A stretch of 64,000 bases of DNA from positions 896,001-960,000 of the forward strand of contig OZ251992.1 of assembly GCA_965246885.1 (NCBI GenBank). Reading direction: 5' to 3'. This document shows positions 42,947 to 52,698 of the stretch, in pieces. A program made the position numbers and the translations under genes. Numbering within the stretch: the first letter of the stretch is position 1; every line of letters begins with the position of its first letter. Under the pieces are notes generated by a model. It did not search any database, was not told where the DNA came from, and saw only the letters and a program-made list of their open reading frames with translations. Origin of the DNA: Abditibacterium sp. (GTDB taxonomy: Bacteria; Armatimonadota; Abditibacteriia; Abditibacteriales; Abditibacteriaceae).

Positions 42947-43801
42947 TCATCTCGAATAGCGCGGGCGCCACAGGGAGCGAGCGAGGGGCGGGTGTGCGCC
43001 GGTGTAGGTGGGCGTGACGGCGCGCATCTTGTCCTTGGCGTCCTGAGGCCAGTCGGCAGGGACAGCGTGGGTTTTGGCGACGACTTGGGCTTGGATGGGT
43101 TCGGGCAGTTGGTCGAAGTCGGGCTGAAACCAGAGGGTGATGAGCGTGCGGCGCTCGTTCGTTTGGTTGTCGTGGGCGGCGTGGAGCAAGCGAGCGTCGC
43201 CCACGAGCAAGTCACCTGCGCGCACCGGCACGTCCACTTCGTCGGGACGGTCAGAAAACTCGACCTGTTCGTGCGCGTTCTCCATCTTCGACAGCCGCTC
43301 GGAGTGCGGCTCGGCGAGCAGGGCGTGAAGCGGGTTCTCTTCGATGTGCGAGCGCGGAATGGCTCGCAAGCAACCGTTCTCGCGCGAGGTGTCGCTCAGG
43401 TAATACATGAGGAACAGTTGCGGCGGCGGGTTTTGGTAGGAGCGGTCGTCGTCCCACGCGAACCAGTCGTAGTGCCAGAACAAGCGCGGGCCAAGCGGCG
43501 CTTTGGAGATAACGTAGCCATCGGAAAAGGTGGCGCTGCTGAAGCCGAGTTGTTGCAAGCACTCCAAGGCGGGAGGAAACGCGATGAGGTCGGCAAAGAT
43601 GGGGTCGGAGTTAGTGAGGATGAGCGAGCCTTGCGCTTTGAGTTGTTCGCGCTCGGCCTCGGTGCGGGCATCGAGCAGGGCGTCCGTCACGGCGCGTAAG
43701 CGCCCCAAAAAGGCGGGTGGCAAAAGGTCGGGAAACACAACGAACCCCTTTTCGAGGAGTTGGGCGCGCTTGGCGGTGTCGAGGGCAATGGATGAAGTCA
43801 T
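42947..43801 (-). CDS. Phytanoyl-CoA dioxygenase (PhyH)-family 2OG/Fe(II) oxygenase
   Basis: WHYD, ENGCLR.IP.SH, distal His, RR. Confidence 0.88.
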   Translation of the reverse strand: MTSSIALDTAKRAQLLEKGFVVFPDLLPPAFLGRLRAVTDALLDARTEAEREQLKAQGSLILTNSDPIFADLIAFPPALECLQQLGFSSATFSDGYVISKAPLGPRLFWHYDWFAWDDDRSYQNPPPQLFLMYYLSDTSRENGCLRAIPRSHIEENPLHALLAEPHSERLSKMENAHEQVEFSDRPDEVDVPVRAGDLLVGDARLLHAAHDNQTNERRTLITLWFQPDFDQLPEPIQAQVVAKTHAVPADWPQDAKDKMRAVTPTYTGAHPPLARSLWRPRYSR

Positions 43802-43821
43802 GCGATAGAAATGGCTAAAGG

Positions 43822-44769
43822 TTAGGTCGCGCCCAGTGTGGTGGGCAGGGCGCGCAGTTGATCGAGAAAGATGGCGGGGATGGCGCCGTCGTTGCCGATG
43901 GGCACGTCCCACGTGATGGCGCCGCCGCGCTCCGTCACGTATTGGGTGTAACCGCGCACGAGGTCAAGCGGGAAACGCGGCGCGCCGCTGCCCCATCCTT
44001 GGCCCAAGTAGGTGAGCAGATGGAACTGGCGCCCGCCGACAGTTGGCTCGACGGGGCGGAAGTGGAGGCCGGGTGCGGCAAAGCCCAGCGCGAGGGCGTT
44101 GTCCAGTTCGCCCGCCGTGTAGTCTTCGTGCGCGGTCATGGAAATGATGGGCGTCAAGACGCCGGGGTTGAAGGCGACCAGAGCATCGGGGTGGCCCGCT
44201 TTGAGGGCGGCGGCGAAAGACGCGAAGTTGGGCGCGTCGTCGGACGCATACATCGCGTCGGGCCAGTAGCAACCGTCTATCCACCACGCGCTGATGCGCG
44301 CGCCCCAGCGCTCCGACCACTCGCGGATCACGGCTTCCCAACGCTTTTGGAAGTCGGCGTTGCGGTGCGGCCCAATGCTCCACCCCAGTTTCTCAACGGC
44401 CAGAGCGTCGTGTTCGGGCGCCCCCGATGGCAGATACGCCATGAAGCGGATACCGCGCGCAGCCAACGCATCGGCAACATCGGCGATGAGGTCGCGGCGC
44501 GAGCACAGGCTCGGTGCGCGTCCCACGAAGCCGTCGTAGGTGGCGTTGGGAGCGCAATAGTGCCCGGAGTTCTGACCGATGGTGAGGCCAAAGTAAGCTG
44601 CGCCCGCGTCGTGCAATTGCGAGGCGAGCCGCGCGGCGTCGAAGGAATCCACCCGCGCGTTCCACGCCCGCGCCGAAGTGCCCGAAACGACGGTGCTTGA
44701 GGCAGGGGAGTCGAGGTAATGAGCGAAAACGCCCCATCTGGCGGAGCGGAGCCAGTTCGTGGTGGACAT
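43822..44769 (-). CDS. Alpha-L-fucosidase-like (GH29-related) TIM-barrel protein
   Basis: WGVFAHY, FDA..LA.Q..AGA.Y, RDLI, WWIDG. Confidence 0.6.
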   Translation of the reverse strand: MSTTNWLRSARWGVFAHYLDSPASSTVVSGTSARAWNARVDSFDAARLASQLHDAGAAYFGLTIGQNSGHYCAPNATYDGFVGRAPSLCSRRDLIADVADALAARGIRFMAYLPSGAPEHDALAVEKLGWSIGPHRNADFQKRWEAVIREWSERWGARISAWWIDGCYWPDAMYASDDAPNFASFAAALKAGHPDALVAFNPGVLTPIISMTAHEDYTAGELDNALALGFAAPGLHFRPVEPTVGGRQFHLLTYLGQGWGSGAPRFPLDLVRGYTQYVTERGGAITWDVPIGNDGAIPAIFLDQLRALPTTLGAT

Positions 44770-44772
44770 GAG

Positions 44773-45561
44773 CTAACGGGTTGCGCCCGCATGGGCGGGG
44801 AAGTGGGCGGCGTCTTGGTGCCAAGGAACGAGGCCGCACAGTTGGCGGCGGATGGGGTCGGTTTGGCGGGCGGCAAATTCGGGCGTGGTGTCATACCCAT
44901 CGGCCCACTGCTTCATCCAAGCGTGCTTATAAAGGATCATGATGAGGCGGCGGTCGCAGTCGCTCGTGTTGGCGGAGTTGGTGTGCCAGATTTCCGTGTT
45001 GTTGATGAGGCAACTCCCGGCGGGGCCGGTGATGCCGATTTGTCCCGGCGTGTTTGCGGGCTGCTGTCCGGGTGAGGTTTCGGGGCATAGTTCCGCGCGG
45101 GAGTGAGTGCCCGAAAGCAGAGTGAACGGGCCGGTGTCGTCGTGCACGTCGCCCAGAAAGTAGGTGGCGCGCACCCAGAAGTTTTGGCGTGGGAGCGGGA
45201 CGTTGGTCATCCACTGGAAGTCGGCGTGCCAGCCGATATAGGCCGGAGTGTGAGCGTATTTGTGGTCGAGTTCGCCGCCGCTCGCCAGTTCGATGTCGTA
45301 GCCGAGCACGCCGCGCGCGATGTCGAAGACCGGAGCATTGTCCATGAGTTGCTCAAACGCTGGGTCACGTTCGAGGATGCGGGGCACTTCGGTACGAAGC
45401 GCACCGTTTGCGCGCGGATGGAGCGCGAGTTGCGCGTCGTAGGCGCGGTTGAGTTCGAGTAGTTGCTCGGCGGACAGGGCGTTTTCGAGCAGAACATAGC
45501 CGTCGCGCGCGAGCAGTTCGAGCGCCTCGGACAGGGGCGTTTGGAGTGTGATGCGATTCAT
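44773..45561 (-). CDS. PhyH-family 2OG/Fe(II) oxygenase
   Basis: DGY, WHAD, GTH, IWH, RR. Confidence 0.88.
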   Translation of the reverse strand: MNRITLQTPLSEALELLARDGYVLLENALSAEQLLELNRAYDAQLALHPRANGALRTEVPRILERDPAFEQLMDNAPVFDIARGVLGYDIELASGGELDHKYAHTPAYIGWHADFQWMTNVPLPRQNFWVRATYFLGDVHDDTGPFTLLSGTHSRAELCPETSPGQQPANTPGQIGITGPAGSCLINNTEIWHTNSANTSDCDRRLIMILYKHAWMKQWADGYDTTPEFAARQTDPIRRQLCGLVPWHQDAAHFPAHAGATR

Positions 45562-45582: not shown

Positions 45583-47766
45583 TTACGGCAATACGGTGCC
45601 GGGAAGAGCGGCGCGCGGGGCGTCGCGGTGGGCAGGATCGGCGGCGCCCAACGTGCGCGGGCGCGGGATGCGCCACATGCCGTAGCATTGGCCGTTGAGC
45701 CAAGCGTCGCCGGTTTTGGGGTGGACGCGAATCCACGAGGTTTCGTGGGGGCCATCGCCAGTTGTGAGGTTTTCCCATGTCGCGCCGCCGTCGCGCGAGC
45801 GCACGAGTGTAGCGGCGCTCGCGTAGATGTTGCGCGGCCCGCCCGCGTAAACGATGCGAGGTTGGCCCGGATCAACAGCAACCGTCACGACGCGCGGCGG
45901 GCGCCCGTATTGGTCGAGGGGCAGTTTGGCGTCGGAGAAGGTGGTGCCATCCCACATTTTAACGCGCTCCTCGGATGCGAAGAAGTAATAGCCGGTGCGC
46001 GCGTCGCACGCCACGTCGCCAAAGCCGCCGGGAACCTCGACCACGCGTTGCCACGTCGCGCCGTCGTCGCGCGAGCGCACAAGAGCCGTCCCCTTTTTGC
46101 CCAACAAAGCGCCATCGGGCATCGAGATATAGACGCCCTGACAGTCGCTCATCGCTTGCCACGTCGCGCCTTGGTCGGTCGAGCGCAGGTTGGATGCGAA
46201 CAGGATGGCGGGGTTTTTCGGGTCGGTGTAGGAGATCTCATCGCCGCCCCACAGAAGCGGGGCGCCCTTGGCATCGTTGACAAAGTTCCACGTCGTGCCG
46301 CCGTCGCGCGACACGCGCATTTTGCGCGGCGGGTTCCAACTGGAGCCGGAGTCGCCATACCACATCGTCTGCCCCGACGCGCCCGCGCCGTAACACTGCC
46401 CGCCCCAGCCTAAACCCGATAGGTCGCGGTATGTCCACGTCCGCCCGCCGTCGAGGGTGAAGGCGCCGTTGTAGTCTTGAAAGCCAAGTAGCACCTCGTT
46501 CGGGTTTTGCAGGTTGAAGTTAAAGCTGACGCCGATCATGATGCCATTGTATCCGGCGTTGCTCCAGCGAAAGCGTTTTCCGCCGTCGGTGGATTTGGTG
46601 GCGAAGTCGCCGCCAATAGACCATGCCACGTTCGGGTCGGTGGGGTGCCATGTGACGTAGCCTTGACGGGCGTTGACGGGGAACGCGTTGGCGACGGTGT
46701 CGGTCGGAGCGAGATTGAAGTTCATGTTGCCAAGGGGCAATAGGCTTACTTCCATCAGGATGGGCTTCCACGTCGCGCCGCCGTCGTGCGACCAATAGCG
46801 CACCCATTTCCAGTTGTCGCCTGCGACCCAACACATCATGCGTTTTGGGTCAGCAGGGGAGACTTTGACGTTACGTACCGCTTTGCCGAGGTTATTCAGC
46901 CCGACGCAAGGCAGCACGACGAAAGTGTGGCTGTCCGTCGAGCGCAACACTTTGTCATCGCCCGATATAACAAGCGCCCCATCGGAGGCGATGTCGAAAC
47001 CATAGACACCCTTGTTGTAGATGTGCTCGAAGGTGCGCCCCTTGTCGGTGGAGCGGAACAAGCCTTCTTGCCCGGAAATCAGCACCGCGCCGTTACGCTC
47101 GACGCGCACCAAGGCAAAGGTGCCGCCACCTTGCGTCCAATCGGAATCAAGGTGGCGCACTATCTGGGGCGCCACGTTTTGCCACGTTTTGCCGCCGTCG
47201 TCCGAGCGGAACAGCCCTTGGCCTTCCGACAGATAATAAGCGCGCAGGCACATCCCCGCTTTGGCGTCAAACGAGGACGGGTCGAACGCCGTAAAGCCGC
47301 CCCAACCGTTGCGCGCGGACAACACTTGAGTCCACGAACCAGCTTTATCGGTCGAAAGATAAACGCCGTTAGGCGACTGACCCCAGTTTTTGTCCCACTC
47401 CATCGAGTTGGACGCTACGCCCAAGACATGCGCGGCGTTGCGCGGATCAATGGCGAAGTTGTTCGCGCCGCGCGCGTTCCAGCCGTTCATGGCGAGGTTC
47501 CATGTCGCGCCGCCGTCGCGCGAAGCGTAAAGCCCGCCCACGTCAATGGGCAAAAGCAGGAAGTTAGGGTCGGCGGGCGATACCGCGATGTCCCATCGGG
47601 GCCACTGCGCGCCCTCACCGCCTAATTTTTCGCCCGCGCGCGCCGCTTCGGGCGACAGCATCGGCATTTTGATGGCGGGCGCGTTTGCGCGGGGAGGCGG
47701 TGCGGCCAAACTGCAAGAAGAAAGCGCGAGGAGCGCGCCCGCGTAGAGGAATCTAACGGAGTTCAT
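45583..47766 (-). CDS. Secreted BNR/Asp-box beta-propeller protein (glycoside-hydrolase-like)
   Basis: Many S.DGG.TW Asp-boxes; signal peptide. Confidence 0.82.
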   Translation of the reverse strand: MNSVRFLYAGALLALSSCSLAAPPPRANAPAIKMPMLSPEAARAGEKLGGEGAQWPRWDIAVSPADPNFLLLPIDVGGLYASRDGGATWNLAMNGWNARGANNFAIDPRNAAHVLGVASNSMEWDKNWGQSPNGVYLSTDKAGSWTQVLSARNGWGGFTAFDPSSFDAKAGMCLRAYYLSEGQGLFRSDDGGKTWQNVAPQIVRHLDSDWTQGGGTFALVRVERNGAVLISGQEGLFRSTDKGRTFEHIYNKGVYGFDIASDGALVISGDDKVLRSTDSHTFVVLPCVGLNNLGKAVRNVKVSPADPKRMMCWVAGDNWKWVRYWSHDGGATWKPILMEVSLLPLGNMNFNLAPTDTVANAFPVNARQGYVTWHPTDPNVAWSIGGDFATKSTDGGKRFRWSNAGYNGIMIGVSFNFNLQNPNEVLLGFQDYNGAFTLDGGRTWTYRDLSGLGWGGQCYGAGASGQTMWYGDSGSSWNPPRKMRVSRDGGTTWNFVNDAKGAPLLWGGDEISYTDPKNPAILFASNLRSTDQGATWQAMSDCQGVYISMPDGALLGKKGTALVRSRDDGATWQRVVEVPGGFGDVACDARTGYYFFASEERVKMWDGTTFSDAKLPLDQYGRPPRVVTVAVDPGQPRIVYAGGPRNIYASAATLVRSRDGGATWENLTTGDGPHETSWIRVHPKTGDAWLNGQCYGMWRIPRPRTLGAADPAHRDAPRAALPGTVLP

Positions 47767-47851
47767 GGAGAGTTGATGGGTGTTCACAAAGGGAAAGGGG
47801 GCGCCACTGCGCCGCGAACGCACTGTCCATTGCGGCGCGGCTGCCACGTCA

Positions 47852-48592
47852 TTACGCCGCCGGGAAAAGCTGCGCTTTGGGAAGAATAATCGAGGTGCCG
47901 CCGGGTCGTGTCCATAGCAATTGGGCTGAGGCAGAACCGGTGAGTTCTTTGTACTCCATCTTGACGATGTATTTAGTGTTAGCGGCGAGAGTAACGGGCG
48001 CCGAGAAGGTGCCCAGAGTCGTCCACTTGTCAATTACCAACACGTTGTTGATCCATAGGCGCACGCCATCATCGGTAGAGGTGGTGAACGAGTAAGTGCC
48101 GCCTTCTTGGGCCAGCACTTGCCCTGTCCATCGGATGGAGAAGTTGTCCACTCCGATGCTGGTGCCGGGGCTACCGGTGCCCCAGTTGAAGTTCACCTGT
48201 GGGTCGGTTTGGGTTTTGACAAGTGACGCCAACGCGTTGTCGCGGTAGTATTGGCCTTTCAAGCCGGTGCCAGTGCCGGTGATGGCAGGTGCCATGCTTT
48301 TGGAAGCGACGTTGGTGTATTTGCTCGTCCACGTCGCGTTGGACGCTTTGACGCGATAGTAGTAGGTCGTGCCCGCCGCCGCGTAGTTGTCCACGAAGGA
48401 GGTAACGTTGGCGCCAGTTTGTCCGCAGTATGTCCAAGGGCCAGCCGCCGCAGTTGCGCGTTCGACGGTGAACTGCGTCTCGTTGGTACTGTTGTCTTTC
48501 CACGTCAGCTTGACTTGAGCGTGGGCGGCAGTCGAGAAGGCGAGACCGCAAGCCGCGAGGAGGCCAGCAGAGAAGATGCGAAGATGTTTCAT
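47852..48592 (-). CDS. Secreted FN3 + PA14 domain protein
   Basis: AHA cleavage site; LTWKDNS.NE..F.VER...YYYRV (FN3); GLKGQYY, FSIRWTG, DDGVRLW (PA14). Confidence 0.88.
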   Translation of the reverse strand: MKHLRIFSAGLLAACGLAFSTAAHAQVKLTWKDNSTNETQFTVERATAAAGPWTYCGQTGANVTSFVDNYAAAGTTYYYRVKASNATWTSKYTNVASKSMAPAITGTGTGLKGQYYRDNALASLVKTQTDPQVNFNWGTGSPGTSIGVDNFSIRWTGQVLAQEGGTYSFTTSTDDGVRLWINNVLVIDKWTTLGTFSAPVTLAANTKYIVKMEYKELTGSASAQLLWTRPGGTSIILPKAQLFPAA

Positions 48593-48626
48593 GTGGTGTT
48601 TGGAAAATGGATGTTAATGGAATTTC

Positions 48627-50468
48627 TCACTGGGCGGCCAAGTTGGAGGGGTCTCCGGGGCCAATGCGAATGTCGTCGAGGTAAGCCCGGAATTGCCCGG
48701 TGGTGTTGGCTCGGTCGTAGGCGACCCAAACGCGATCAATGTTCTTGCCCGCCAACGATGATAAATTGGCTGTAATCTGACTCCACCCTCCCAGCACGAT
48801 CCCCCCGCCGTGTCCTGCGTTGGGGTGCAAACTCTTCCCGTTTTGATCGGTGAGGCCACTGTCACGTAGCGTGGTGCCGTCGGTACAGTGAAAGTCGAGC
48901 GCCACGTAGCGCCCACCATCTTGCACCGGGTTGATCCAGTAGGACAGCGTTGTGTTGGAGGCGATGGTGACTGGGGCGCCGCTCAGGTTGAAGACCTTGA
49001 AATAGCAGAAGTTGGCTCCAGAAGCGTTCCCCGCTGTCCCCGCCGCCATAAGCATGGACGAGCCACTGTTGGCGTTGATTGTGCCCCAGTCCCCGTTACT
49101 GCGTACTCCGCACTCTGGCCCCACGCCAGCCACGAAGCCAGACACGTTCGTGGCGCCCGCCGTATAATCGGTGTCGGGCGAGTCGTTCCACGTGGGCAAC
49201 GGATCGCCGCCGTTCTCGAAGCTTGTTGTAAACGTGCCAGCCGCAACCGGTGCCGGAGTGGGAGTTGGTGCGGGCGCCGTGCCCGACCAACCATTTAGGT
49301 CTTTGATCCACTGCGTGAGTTGGTTGGCCATCGCAATATGGTCGTTGCCGTTGGGGTGGCCGCCATGCGGCTGCTGGGGAAACGTGCGGGTAACGACCTT
49401 GGGATCGCCCAGATTTCTCACCGCACTAAATACCCCATTCAGGAAGTTGGGATCGGTCATCGTGGTGTTCATGCAGATGATCCACGCGTTAGGATAAACG
49501 CGACGCAGGTCTTGAACCTGTGCGAGGTAACGCTGCGTGAGGGTGCCATACCAATCGGTGGCGGGGTCGTATTGATACTGGTCGTTTTGCCCGGTGGCGA
49601 TCACCACGACATCTGCTTGCCACGAGGCAAAGCCTTGGTATTGGGAATAACCCGCACCCGCCGAGGCCTTGTCCCACATGGAGCGCATATTATCGAAGAA
49701 GAACCCCGTGCTCATCCCGGCCCCGCCTTTGGCGATGAGTCGCGTGTCGGCGCCGAAGTTGCGACCCGTCAAAGCCGCATAGTCATAGTAGTTGCTGCCG
49801 CCCCATGTGTCGCCGTTGTCGGTGGAATTGGCCAGTTTGATCGTGCAGCATTGCTCCGTCACAGAGTCACCGTAGAACTCGATTTTGCGAGCCGAGTTCA
49901 CCGACGGCGCTTGCAACAGTGTGGCACCGTCATCCAGAATGATGCCTTCCATGAGCAGTAATGCGAAGGCATCGCCGTCGCGCCGCACGGTCAGATTGTG
50001 TTCGCCAAGCGATAGGTTATTGGTGATGAGGGTGTTGCCGCCCCAGTCGGCGCCCACGCTTTCGCGGCGCAGTTGTTGGCCGTCCAGAAAATACAGCAGG
50101 TCGGTATTTTGTGAGTTGGGTGGAACAGTGGCATCGCGTCCCCGGAAGGTGATGCGGATGCTGGAAGAGTTGGTGAAACGAATGCGCGCTTCGCCGCCCG
50201 TCCAGCCCATATCTACGCTCTGGCCGTCCACGCTGTATTGGTTGGGATGCTGTTGGGTGCGGCCCGTGTAGGTGATGTTGCTATTGGCGCCGCTAAAAGT
50301 GACCGCGTGTGCAGTGACGGCATGGCCCACCATGAGACCGAAAAGCGCAAGCGTTGGCCAGAGTGCAAAGGTGCCCCGCTTTTGGAAGGGAGAACGCCTG
50401 TGTTCGATCCGAGCAATTCTACGTCGGGTCGCTTCTTGAAGGAAGCGTTGGATGAATGAGATTTTCAC
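48627..50468 (-). CDS. Secreted SGNH/GDSL esterase (CE2-like) with C-terminal beta-sandwich domain; GTG start assumed
   Basis: IEFYGDSVT, GQND, GHP; AHA cleavage site. Confidence 0.78.
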   Translation of the reverse strand: MKISFIQRFLQEATRRRIARIEHRRSPFQKRGTFALWPTLALFGLMVGHAVTAHAVTFSGANSNITYTGRTQQHPNQYSVDGQSVDMGWTGGEARIRFTNSSSIRITFRGRDATVPPNSQNTDLLYFLDGQQLRRESVGADWGGNTLITNNLSLGEHNLTVRRDGDAFALLLMEGIILDDGATLLQAPSVNSARKIEFYGDSVTEQCCTIKLANSTDNGDTWGGSNYYDYAALTGRNFGADTRLIAKGGAGMSTGFFFDNMRSMWDKASAGAGYSQYQGFASWQADVVVIATGQNDQYQYDPATDWYGTLTQRYLAQVQDLRRVYPNAWIICMNTTMTDPNFLNGVFSAVRNLGDPKVVTRTFPQQPHGGHPNGNDHIAMANQLTQWIKDLNGWSGTAPAPTPTPAPVAAGTFTTSFENGGDPLPTWNDSPDTDYTAGATNVSGFVAGVGPECGVRSNGDWGTINANSGSSMLMAAGTAGNASGANFCYFKVFNLSGAPVTIASNTTLSYWINPVQDGGRYVALDFHCTDGTTLRDSGLTDQNGKSLHPNAGHGGGIVLGGWSQITANLSSLAGKNIDRVWVAYDRANTTGQFRAYLDDIRIGPGDPSNLAAQ

Positions 50469-50527
50469 GATGGATAGTTCGGGGCGCCCGCTTTCTTTTA
50501 AATGGCGGGCGCCGACTCGAACGGTTT

Positions 50528-51763
50528 TTACTGGGCGGCGAGGTTGGAGGGGTCTGGTGCGAGTGCTTGGAGGAACCAGCGTTGTTGGTCGAGGGCGTAG
50601 TCGTTGTACAGGGTCAAGGGGGTGTTGTCGCCGCCGTTGTAGTCGCCCTTGGTGAGGATGCGCCCGGAGTATTTGTTGCGGATGCGATACGAGCCGTCGC
50701 TTTGGGCATCGAGATACCACCTTTGCCAGTCGAGGTCATAGTTGGTGAACAGGCTGGCGGCGGTGCCATCGGCTCCGGCGTTGTCGGCTTGGGTGAGCAC
50801 CTTGTTGCTGTAGGCGTTGCGCACGCGATACGAGCCGTCGCCCACCGCCTCGAAGCGCCAACTCTGCCACGCCACGCCGTAGTCGTTAAACACGTTCGCG
50901 GGCGTGTTGTCGCCGCCCGCGTTGTCCCCTTGCGTTAGAAAACGGGCGCCTCCACCATACTTCAACTGAACTTTATACGTCGCGCTCGTATCAACGCCGC
51001 CAGCGACGGGCGGCGGCGGGTTGGCGCGTAGCGCGGCGTCGCTCATGGTGGTGAAGTTGAACGAGCGCCAATCGGAAGTCACGTATTTCATACGCGCTTC
51101 GCCGCCGTCGGGATAGGCCGCGTAGGTTTCGGTCACGTAGTCGAAACCAGCGTTGGCGAGATATTTTCCGTTCGGGTCGTTGATTAAGCGCGCTTGGATA
51201 GTCGAGTAGACGCCGACGATGGGGCGGTTTTGCAAGTTGTAACGCGCGTCCGTAAAACCGTGAAAGTTGTAACCCGTCCCCGTATTGGCCTGACTACCCG
51301 CTTTAACTGCATTGCCCACGCGGTCGCCGGGAAGGGTGCTTCGGACGTTGAGATTAAAATCTTCGGGGTAGGCCGCGCCGCCAAATTCGTTTTGGTCAAC
51401 TAACTTTTGCCATACGCCATCGCCGTAGACAACCCACAACTGAAATCCTCCCAATTCGACGCGGGCCGAGGCAGATGGATTGCCGCTCGCCGGTTCGTAG
51501 ACCTGAAAGTAAGGTCGAATGTAAGCTGAGCCTTTGGGGTCGGTGTTGCCGCGCCCGGTTGCGTGGTTGTACCACGCGTAGAAATCGGGGACTCCGTGCG
51601 GAATGTCCTCGGAGTTCAGATTCATATCGTCCAAGATTTCTTGGACGCTGTTGGCATGGACGGGCGCCCAAGACGCCAAAAGCACTAACGCAGCGATGAA
51701 AATCGCCGCACACGCGCGCCGGAGCGCCGCTGTATTGAAGCGGTTGGTGTGGATGTGGGTCAT
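50528..51763 (-). CDS. Secreted protein with C-terminal ricin-type beta-trefoil lectin domain
   Basis: GGAGG RBS; QSW/QRW/QRW (QxW) repeats with GSYR.RN.YS. Confidence 0.82.
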   Translation of the reverse strand: MTHIHTNRFNTAALRRACAAIFIAALVLLASWAPVHANSVQEILDDMNLNSEDIPHGVPDFYAWYNHATGRGNTDPKGSAYIRPYFQVYEPASGNPSASARVELGGFQLWVVYGDGVWQKLVDQNEFGGAAYPEDFNLNVRSTLPGDRVGNAVKAGSQANTGTGYNFHGFTDARYNLQNRPIVGVYSTIQARLINDPNGKYLANAGFDYVTETYAAYPDGGEARMKYVTSDWRSFNFTTMSDAALRANPPPPVAGGVDTSATYKVQLKYGGGARFLTQGDNAGGDNTPANVFNDYGVAWQSWRFEAVGDGSYRVRNAYSNKVLTQADNAGADGTAASLFTNYDLDWQRWYLDAQSDGSYRIRNKYSGRILTKGDYNGGDNTPLTLYNDYALDQQRWFLQALAPDPSNLAAQ

Positions 51764-51951: not shown

Positions 51952-52698
51952 TTAGATGCGCGCGATGATTTCACCGTCTTGCAAGAACGGTTCGGCGAGG
52001 TGGAACGGGGTGCCGTTGGATTTGAGAACCGGTGCTGGCGCGTATTGCGGCAAATAAACGCGGCGCGGCGTGGCCGTTGTGTTGGGGCCGGAGCGGTGGA
52101 ACACGTCGGACATAAACACGGCGATGCTTCCTGCCGGACAAATCACCGGGTCGCCCGGATCGTCGCCGCGATAGCCGACCAAATCCCAGTCGCCCTCGTC
52201 ACGCGAATGGTGCACAATGTCGCGCCCGCCCGCGCGGTCGTAGGGCAACATGTAAACGGTGCCGTTCTCAACCGTGATGTCGTCTAAGGCGCACCAGCAG
52301 GTCAGATAAAGCGGGTTGTCGGGCGCCGCATCGTTTTGGACGTAGCCGGAATCTTGGTGCCACGCGAACTTGCCGCCCTTCTCGGCGGCCTTGATGACGT
52401 ATTGCTCGAACACGAAAAACACCGTATCGCCGAGCAACGCGCGCGTGACTTCGGCCATCGTGGGCGAAAAGACGAACTGCGCCAGTTCGGGGTATTTCTC
52501 GAACGCCGAGATGAAGTACTTGGTCGTGCGGGCGCGGCCCTGCGCGTCCGCTTCGGCGTCCACGTCGGCAACAGCGCGGTCAGCGACATCGCGCAAAAGG
52601 TGCAAGAGGTCGTCGGGGATGACGCGCTCCAACACGGTGAAACCTTGCGTTTGGAAATCGCGCAAGTGGGAATCAGAAACAACGGAAGTGATGGTCAT
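51952..52698 (-). CDS. PhyH-family 2OG/Fe(II) oxygenase
   Basis: WHQD, W.ALDD.T.ENG, HRSGPN, RR. Confidence 0.9.
   Translation of the reverse strand: MTITSVVSDSHLRDFQTQGFTVLERVIPDDLLHLLRDVADRAVADVDAEADAQGRARTTKYFISAFEKYPELAQFVFSPTMAEVTRALLGDTVFFVFEQYVIKAAEKGGKFAWHQDSGYVQNDAAPDNPLYLTCWCALDDITVENGTVYMLPYDRAGGRDIVHHSRDEGDWDLVGYRGDDPGDPVICPAGSIAVFMSDVFHRSGPNTTATPRRVYLPQYAPAPVLKSNGTPFHLAEPFLQDGEIIARI

Follow-up and report, generated by a model that had tools for sequence, protein, structure and literature searches.

In the genome of an Abditibacterium sp. (3.56 Mb; assembly GCA_965246885.1) we have analysed a window of 64,000 nt, the whole stretch of contig OZ251992.1 from position 896,001 to position 960,000 on the forward strand. 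Two adjacent and otherwise unrelated minus-strand genes in it, one for a ricin-lectin protein and one for a CE2 esterase, end in the same eight residues, DPSNLAAQ, and the gene that follows encodes an FN3-PA14 protein whose FN3 domain begins only at strand B. All three proteins have signal peptides. The comparisons set out below give good support to the reading of these parts as a split FN3 domain, in which the two tails are copies of strand A and the next gene provides strands B to G. Docking of the tails in trans on the incomplete domain is the best single explanation for these data, and we give this predicted binding a probability of about 0.42.

Two identical tails and the strand they resemble

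A sequence-only reading of this region had claimed that the esterase and the ricin-domain protein end identically in DPSNLAAQ, and this was borne out both by the open reading frames and by alignment of the DNA. The esterase frame ends ...DDIRIGPGDPSNLAAQ-TGA, with the tail encoded at 48630-48653 and the stop codon at 48627-48629, and the ricin-lectin frame ends ...FLQALAPDPSNLAAQ-TAA, with the tail at 50531-50554 and the stop at 50528-50530 (here and below, positions are those of the window and the strand is minus, unless stated otherwise). When 161 bases around each end were aligned, the likeness was limited to A GAC CCC TCC AAC (TTG/CTC) GCC GCC CAG T(G/A)A, the esterase having TTG and TGA and the ricin-lectin gene CTC and TAA; the flanks are unrelated, as are the two proteins over the rest of their sequence. 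Eight identical terminal residues on two unrelated adjacent proteins cannot be chance. All three base differences between the copies leave the peptide and the stop unchanged, as would 18 of the 81 possible single changes, which gives a conditional chance of ~0.011 if three events are counted or ~0.05 if TTG/CTC is taken as one event. Differences that are only silent, with no likeness in the flanks, suggest constraint on the tail peptide, a point to which we attach moderate weight, the test being post hoc and small. Both tails lie past the domain ends as judged from homologues and should be free, and the two coding sequences break off after the same residue, which is what a requirement for a free C-terminus would predict. 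Ends of the form PSNL plus one to four residues were found on three of the 24,015 frames of at least 80 aa in the genome; two of these are the real open reading frames described here, and the other, of 100 aa, ends APPSNLR. Contigs from a second sequencing run of the same study span both tails with 0 differences and no variation; the stretch is present in two runs of one study, the first of which may be the assembly's own source, and no RNA run is listed among the runs that hold this stretch.

The FN3-PA14 gene (47852-48592) encodes 246 residues, comprising a signal peptide (residues 1-25; 48518-48592), an FN3 domain running from strand B to strand G according to alignments and an AlphaFold model (residues 26-105; 48278-48517) and a PA14 domain (residues 109-236; 47885-48268; Pfam PF07691, E value 6.2e-29, 101.1 bits with a cut-off of 24). 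Its mature product had been said to start without strand A, and the reading frame agrees: it reads MKHLRIFSAGLLAACGLAFSTAAHA|QVKLTWKDNSTNE, passing at an inferred cleavage site, AHA|Q, from the signal peptide straight into strand B (QVKLTW). An in-frame stop lies seven codons upstream of the ATG, the stop-to-stop frame being 253 aa, and therefore no strand A can be encoded in frame. Read-through or frameshifting that would fuse the esterase to the FN3-PA14 protein was considered and is ruled out by the 34-base spacer between the esterase stop and this ATG (48593-48626), which brings a change of frame and holds a TAA in the downstream frame, by the stop seven codons before the ATG and by the signal peptide, which would be buried in such a fusion. 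A lipoprotein reading of the signal peptide (LLAAC, residues 11-15) was also rejected, Cys15 being absent or out of context in the orthologues.

That residues 26-105 belong to an FN3 domain is indicated by 40% identity (E value 7.8e-12) to a complete C-terminal FN3 encoded in the same genome (G000:C1:2508761-2511067), with which the segment aligns in register, and by a match to P0012 (39% identity, 96% of the query covered), a protein with FN3 domains that score 78 bits in Pfam. LTWKDNSTNE, with the strand-B Trp, and TYYYRVKA, the Tyr-rich strand F, both align in register with recognised FN3 domains. The segment had no match to Pfam PF00041 at E values up to 1 (cut-off 25 bits), and only Tissue_fac (E value 0.011) and Pur_ac_phosph_N (E value 0.13) were returned; the orthologue P0002 reaches 14.8 bits with Pfam fn3 (E value 0.033). 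From the seven strands of an FN3 domain (A, B, C, C', E, F and G) it lacks strand A together with the A-B turn, a stretch of 14 residues in the complete FN3 of this genome.

The register of the absent strand was taken from 65 distinct FN3 domains of the W.DNS.NE subtype in fetched loci, with positions counted from the Trp of strand B (0). The earlier statement that this subtype usually begins with P.APSNL.A as strand A before.LSW.DNS.NE holds across these domains: P is found at -17 in 56, L at -14 in 49, A at -12 in 48 and Q at -5 in 33, and the canonical register is P(-17) S/T(-16) G/N/D(-15) L(-14) x A(-12) x A V S S S Q(-5) I N L T/S W(0). Set against this strand, PSNLAAQ occupies -17 to -11, and the first residue of the mature FN3-PA14 protein is the conserved Q(-5); the positions in between, -10 to -6, which comprise the last part of strand A and the A-B hairpin turn, are encoded by neither chain. 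When the C-termini of 5,830 frames of at least 200 aa were scored with a profile of positions -17 to -11, the two tails tied at rank 3, and in these frames as a whole only 97 of 2,043,633 positions scored at least as high. The strand-B motif of the subtype is matched by only two frames in the genome, that of the FN3-PA14 protein and one with a complete FN3 that reads APTNLAASSIGRTSLTLTWTDNSTNE. In the FN3 topology, for which the tenth domain of fibronectin is the model, the Leu at -14 lies paired across from the Trp. On the register that this implies, L-A-A-Q of the tail would pair with W-T-L-K, and each of the two chains would end where the hairpin turn has been removed. The idea that strand A is supplied in trans thus stands in so far as the tail is, by profile and by the 65 domains, a strand A that agrees in subtype and register with the strand-A-less FN3 next to it; its binding we retain as a prediction.

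The highest strand-A-profile score among the C-termini of this genome belongs to a fucosidase-like protein encoded ~4 kb from the tails (43822-44769), which has no signal peptide and ends LPTTLGAT. It was considered as a third tail and judged to be a chance match, the protein being cytoplasmic by its lack of a signal peptide and ~1.6 such matches being expected by chance, but its position so near the tails is notable.

A conserved strand-A-less family and fused relatives

A collection of 5.8 billion proteins yielded six close relatives of the FN3-PA14 protein, all from metagenomes and 62-75% identical to it (P0002-P0007), five of which have 245-250 residues and one 382; the contigs that encode them measure 6.9, 1.9, 9.9, 15.5, 52.4 and 1.3 kb. 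In all seven family members a typical signal peptide, ending A-x-A in P0002-P0007, leads straight into QV(K/Q/R)L(S/T/K/A)W, and A25 and Q26, on either side of the inferred cleavage site, are invariant in the six aligned members along with V27, L29 and W31. Because all seven share this start at strand B, the loss of strand A is, on these alignments, old and maintained, and no accident of this genome. The long relative, P0005 (382 aa), has a ricin-type lectin domain of ~130 residues inserted inside its FN3 after ...FFLERT, and so presents ricin, FN3 and PA14 domains in a third topology. We note that residues 12-25 of the FN3-PA14 precursor (48518-48559), AACGLAFSTAAHAQ, fall in register with strand A and the turn of the complete FN3, APTNLAASSIGRTS, with four identities in an ungapped local alignment; this likeness may be chance in Ala-rich sequence, or the signal peptide may have evolved in place from that segment.

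The same sample holds another copy of the gene. A 5.6-kb contig of depth 3.4 (run X1, record 2) matches 47946-48528 with ~81% identity in DNA (81 differences in 423 bases) and skips or diverges over 122 bases within the FN3 part (48369-48490); the sample therefore contains a second, related organism that has the FN3-PA14 gene. With the family alignment as a profile, a search of metagenomes gave at least 79 loci. These are distant, and the best spanning match among those listed (L045) is 38% identical and lies within a 2,455-aa protein with complete FN3 domains. Neither a strand-A tail nor a strand-A-less start was seen among the metagenome loci listed, apart from a 155-aa frame on the plus strand of one of them (L114:16811-17275) that ends ...PPEPTIAPTDFNVS-stop, the final APTDFNVS of which resembles a bare FN3 strand A. 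A DNA pattern specific to the family, RVKA-x4-WTSxYTNxA, had 0 matches in 185,579 species genomes.

Relatives of the two tail carriers have covalent modules where the tails stand here. The C-terminal domain of the esterase (~190 residues; 48660-49235) matched 0 Pfam families at E values up to 1. It has 645 relatives in a representative library, 357 of them at E values up to 1e-10, in which it usually lies at the protein C-terminus or before other modules; some have it in two or three copies and many are large modular proteins. The domain looks like an undescribed module that is probably carbohydrate-binding. Its end was checked in 159 proteins, made up of the best 150 of the 645, including three of the 11 proteins from a separate search, and the other eight from that search, by matching against the last 30 domain residues. 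A match was obtained in 148 proteins and not in the remaining 11, and the 168 matching copies divide into 74 that end no more than five residues from the protein end, 12 with tails of 6-25 residues and 82 in which the chain runs on. In P0148, P0157, P0162 and P0165 (57-63% identical) a complete FN3 follows the domain after 7-10 residues, and in P0201 it is followed by PA14. The nearest relatives for the ricin domain, P0122 and P0123 (62-66% identical), continue from the ricin domain directly into PA14, P0123 having the order CE2 esterase-ricin-PA14. The same longest contig, of 24,115 bases, is listed for both, and they are probably encoded on one contig; their nearly identical ricin-PA14 C-terminal modules on different enzymes suggest recent duplication or gene conversion of these modules. 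Judged by domain order, what is one chain in the relatives is three chains here, a Rosetta-stone pattern.

Proposed docking of the tails and rival explanations

The tails, the limitation of their likeness to the tail codons, the match in subtype and register, the conserved strand-A-less form and the fused relatives are direct observations. From them we infer that the tail binds, with all that would follow. We propose that, after export, one tail would lie antiparallel to strand B (QVKLTW), which is exposed in the incomplete FN3, and place its Leu into the core, an edge-strand addition as in donor-strand complementation or in the binding of C-terminal peptides by PDZ domains. Through the bound tail, one of the two carriers, esterase or lectin protein, would be attached to the PA14 carbohydrate-binding module; this attachment would replace the covalent enzyme-FN3/PA14 fusions of the relatives and allow two proteins to share one module. 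In its wider form the proposal is a tentative one, namely that this is a natural split-domain docking system in which an eight-residue C-terminal tag completes a conserved secreted strand-A-less FN3, several glycan-active proteins share one PA14 without a covalent link and the seven-member family acts as dedicated receptors.

Several findings weigh against docking. The tail is confined to this locus in the genomes searched: PSNLAAQ-stop occurred in 0 of 400 other genomes of the phylum, the two pattern matches being PWNFAAQ-stop and PSNFAAQW, and DPSNLAAQ-stop in 0 of 185,579 species genomes, in which the three matches were all internal and followed by Trp. No orthologous locus or family member was found in 26 other genomes of the family Abditibacteriaceae, and the co-occurrence of the tail with a strand-A-less partner is seen in one genome. 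Among the 159 proteins that were checked for the esterase C-terminal domain, none except the window's own protein had a strand-A-like tail. The sequence-only reading had named homologues that lack the tail, or that continue into a full FN3, as evidence that would count against it; such homologues are what was found for the esterase C-terminal domain, and taken over the whole system this objection holds in part. In the closest relatives, the FN3 domains that follow are of another subtype (P.G..A.AGNAQV.LSW.AP.G), and therefore the esterase tail is not simply what the relatives carry; it is cognate to its neighbour instead, which fits a domain split in this lineage, the fused ancestor itself not having been found among the relatives. 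The AlphaFold model, made from an alignment of six sequences, has six strands with a block-mean predicted local distance difference test (pLDDT) score of 71-89 for residues 31-100 and a mean of 62.6 for the whole model. Modelled in this way as a folded six-strand sandwich without strand A, the FN3-PA14 protein may not need one. A single short edge strand usually binds weakly. Prediction of a complex between the mature FN3-PA14 protein (residues 26-246) and the esterase C-terminal domain with its tail gave scores of 0.13 and 0.16 against a mark of 0.32, in runs without controls, and is given no weight on either side.

Debris of similar modules lies elsewhere in the genome, outside the window, and belongs among these adverse points. 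A secreted BNR-repeat protein (833-aa frame, G000:C1:515095-517596) ends ...GTPVAAKTPAPANLP-stop and is followed by a long inverted repeat; its final TPAPANLP is a shorter stump that resembles the start of an FN3 strand A, and in two genomes of the genus relatives 33-36% identical to it stop ~9 residues short of this point, with no FN3 continuation. An 81-aa frame (G000:C1:3048337-3048579), flanked by genes for a LacI-type regulator and a secreted glycan-enzyme-like protein, has no more of a PA14 domain than its last 60 residues; these match residues 186-245 of the FN3-PA14 protein with 68% identity, and the frame looks like a second, decayed copy of a family member.

The close rival of docking, which we regard as possible although doubtful, is that the tails are relics of gene fission and bind nothing. 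An enzyme-FN3-PA14 ancestor would have split inside the A-B hairpin, and the strand-A stump would have been copied together with its stop on to the ricin gene by a short conversion tract, truncating that gene and leaving the FN3-PA14 protein as a lone small secreted lectin and the tails idle. The fused architectures that such a history needs are present in the relatives, and module exchange between neighbouring genes is apparent within the group from the ricin-PA14 ends of P0122 and P0123. The restriction of the tail to this genome, the TPAPANLP stump on the other secreted BNR protein, the decayed PA14 fragment, from which it appears that modules turn over, and the folded model without strand A are likewise in its favour. 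However, the split is old, as orthologues of 62-75% identity all lack strand A, and a useless eight-residue stump should have decayed or been lost in the meantime, whereas the two copies are identical in protein and have three base differences that are all silent, with no likeness in their flanks; in addition, two separate events ending at the same codon are required. Fission had been offered as an alternative to docking. As an account of origin it is probably true, and such an origin is compatible with docking.

Another explanation for the silent differences, which suggest constraint on both the peptide and its terminal position, is a functional tail with some other reader, be it a processing protease, an export step or another binding protein, the likeness to strand A reflecting origin only. 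Both carriers are exported and belong to one glycan-degradation cluster, as this explanation would have it. We consider it improbable: two carriers in the genome are too few for a sorting signal, and for this reason the sorting signal suggested by the sequence-only reading is unlikely; the tail is without the hydrophobic or charged segment of known C-terminal sorting domains; and there would be no explanation for why the adjacent FN3 lacks precisely this strand, in a subtype and register that match the tail. It is about as improbable that the exposed strand B serves in self-association, pairing two FN3-PA14 molecules edge to edge and so raising lectin avidity, with the tails as unrelated leftovers. 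The strand-A-less start and the invariant QV.L.W in seven of seven members are consistent with this, as is the general tendency of exposed edge strands to pair, but the two identical tails would have no explanation.

If docking does occur, it would be a new way for bacteria to build extracellular enzyme-lectin complexes, in which a fold is completed by the strand of another protein, with pilus polymerisation as the main example known until now. Such docking would represent a minimal, fold-completing counterpart of cohesin-dockerin pairing and a new variant of strand complementation, and the very small natural peptide/domain pair could possibly serve as a tag in protein engineering. If the tail does not bind, the locus would still be a clean case of fission, in which a gene was cut within a beta-hairpin and two genes retained the stump, and it would warn that FN3 domains can do without strand A. 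What is new here is the conserved seven-member strand-A-less family, the register of tail and strand A, and the covalent modules that relatives carry at the position of the tail.

Gene setting and comparison with known systems

Four consecutive minus-strand genes encode the ricin-lectin protein, the CE2 esterase, the FN3-PA14 protein and a BNR-repeat protein. The ricin-lectin gene (50528-51763, TAA stop) encodes a signal peptide, an N-terminal domain without a Pfam family, a ricin-type beta-trefoil lectin domain (RicinB_lectin_2 in the Pfam scan, E value 2.6e-14) and the tail, APDPSNLAAQ; the database gene call for it (P0121) has 411 aa and starts MTHIHTN. Between its stop and the esterase start, a 9-bp G+C-rich inverted repeat with a 13-base loop (GGCGCCCGC / GCGGGCGCC; 50482-50513) was read from the sequence; it was not called by the terminator scan, its loop being long and a T run lacking. 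The esterase gene (48627-50468, TGA stop) encodes a long signal peptide, a CE2 N-terminal beta-sandwich with a GDSL esterase domain, a Pro/Thr linker, the 190-residue C-terminal domain and the tail, PGDPSNLAAQ. Its GTG start at 50468 was inferred because a signal peptide results, and the database call (P0145) starts at the ATG at 50333. Assignment as a CE2-type GDSL esterase is from domain scores, not catalytic residues: CE2_N reached 30.8 bits (cut-off 27.9) and Lipase_GDSL_2 34.9 bits (cut-off 32.9). The BNR/Asp-box repeat gene (45583-47769; Sortilin-Vps10-like according to Pfam) provides context and lies outside the proposed pair. The cluster also holds three PhyH dioxygenase genes, the fucosidase-like gene, two DUF1559 pseudopilin-like genes and a GntR/LacI-type regulator, and the setting is a glycan-degradation cluster. 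The PhyH-type genes (phytanoyl-CoA dioxygenase family; 42947-43912, 44773-45561 and 51952-52698) are interleaved with the secreted glycan-active genes and are unusual companions for a polysaccharide locus.

By analogy, the nearest natural parallel to the proposed docking is the assembly of type V pili (FimA and Mfa1 of Porphyromonas gingivalis), in which the N-terminal strand is removed after export and its place is taken by one or more C-terminal strands donated by another subunit (PMC13655056). Common to both would be a beta-sandwich without its N-terminal strand and, as donor, a C-terminal strand of another polypeptide. In the pili a gingipain cuts the strand, the folds are transthyretin-like, donor and acceptor are in one protein and give filaments, and the pilins are lipoproteins, whereas here the gene has no strand A to begin with, the signal peptide runs directly into strand B, the donor and the acceptor are separate proteins and a 1:1 enzyme-lectin pair would be expected. 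The FN3-PA14 protein is a beta-sandwich without one strand, as a donor-strand acceptor should be, and the tails are candidate donors of the right subtype, register and length for the vacant position. It ends ...KAQLFPAA without a donor tail, and the donor proteins have no incomplete FN3; no subunit here combines donor and acceptor as a polymer requires. Chaperone-usher pili and TasA likewise complete an incomplete Ig-like fold with a strand of another chain (PMC9674648; PMC9046445). In those systems the donors are N-terminal, the products are polymers and the chaperone-usher pathway needs a chaperone and an usher, in contrast to the C-terminal tail described here, for which no polymer is expected. 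Pfam scans of 24 window proteins, limited to the window, found no chaperone or usher genes. In the literature, no description was found of a strand-A tag for FN3 docking, most subscription journals lying outside the search.

In function the system would, if docking is true, be like cohesin-dockerin pairing, with alternative enzymes, a C-terminal tag and a shared carbohydrate-binding scaffold. A dockerin is a folded calcium-binding module of ~70 residues with two repeats, and a cohesin is a complete beta-sandwich, whereas the tag here has eight residues and would complete the fold of its partner. It is not a member of that system, as no dockerin or cohesin Pfam family was found at E values up to 0.01 in the ricin-lectin, esterase and FN3-PA14 proteins. 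PDZ domains recognise a few residues at the extreme C-terminus, which add as an antiparallel strand to an exposed edge strand. If the tail likewise had to be free at its C-terminus, the common end point of both genes would be explained, although the fold is different and the peptide here would restore a native strand with its Leu in the core. C-terminal sorting signals (PEP-CTERM, LPXTG and the C-terminal domain of the type IX secretion system) are carried by many exported proteins per genome and have a hydrophobic or folded C-terminal segment; here there are two carriers, and the tail consists of eight polar or small residues. Fragment complementation of FN3 has reportedly been engineered, by Dutta, Batori, Koide and Koide in 2005. 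Such FN3 fragments and split domains of the SpyTag/SpyCatcher type are also beta-sandwiches that reassemble from fragments, but are laboratory constructs. SpyTag forms a covalent isopeptide bond, and nothing suggests one in the tail/FN3 pair. Finally, the covalent modular proteins of glycan degradation, with an enzyme followed by carbohydrate-binding module (CBM), FN3 and PA14 domains, have the same modules in the same order, as in P0148 with CBM6-(unnamed domain)-FN3-FN3; the difference is that here the chain is broken inside the FN3, and the N-terminal stump of that domain is borne by two proteins.

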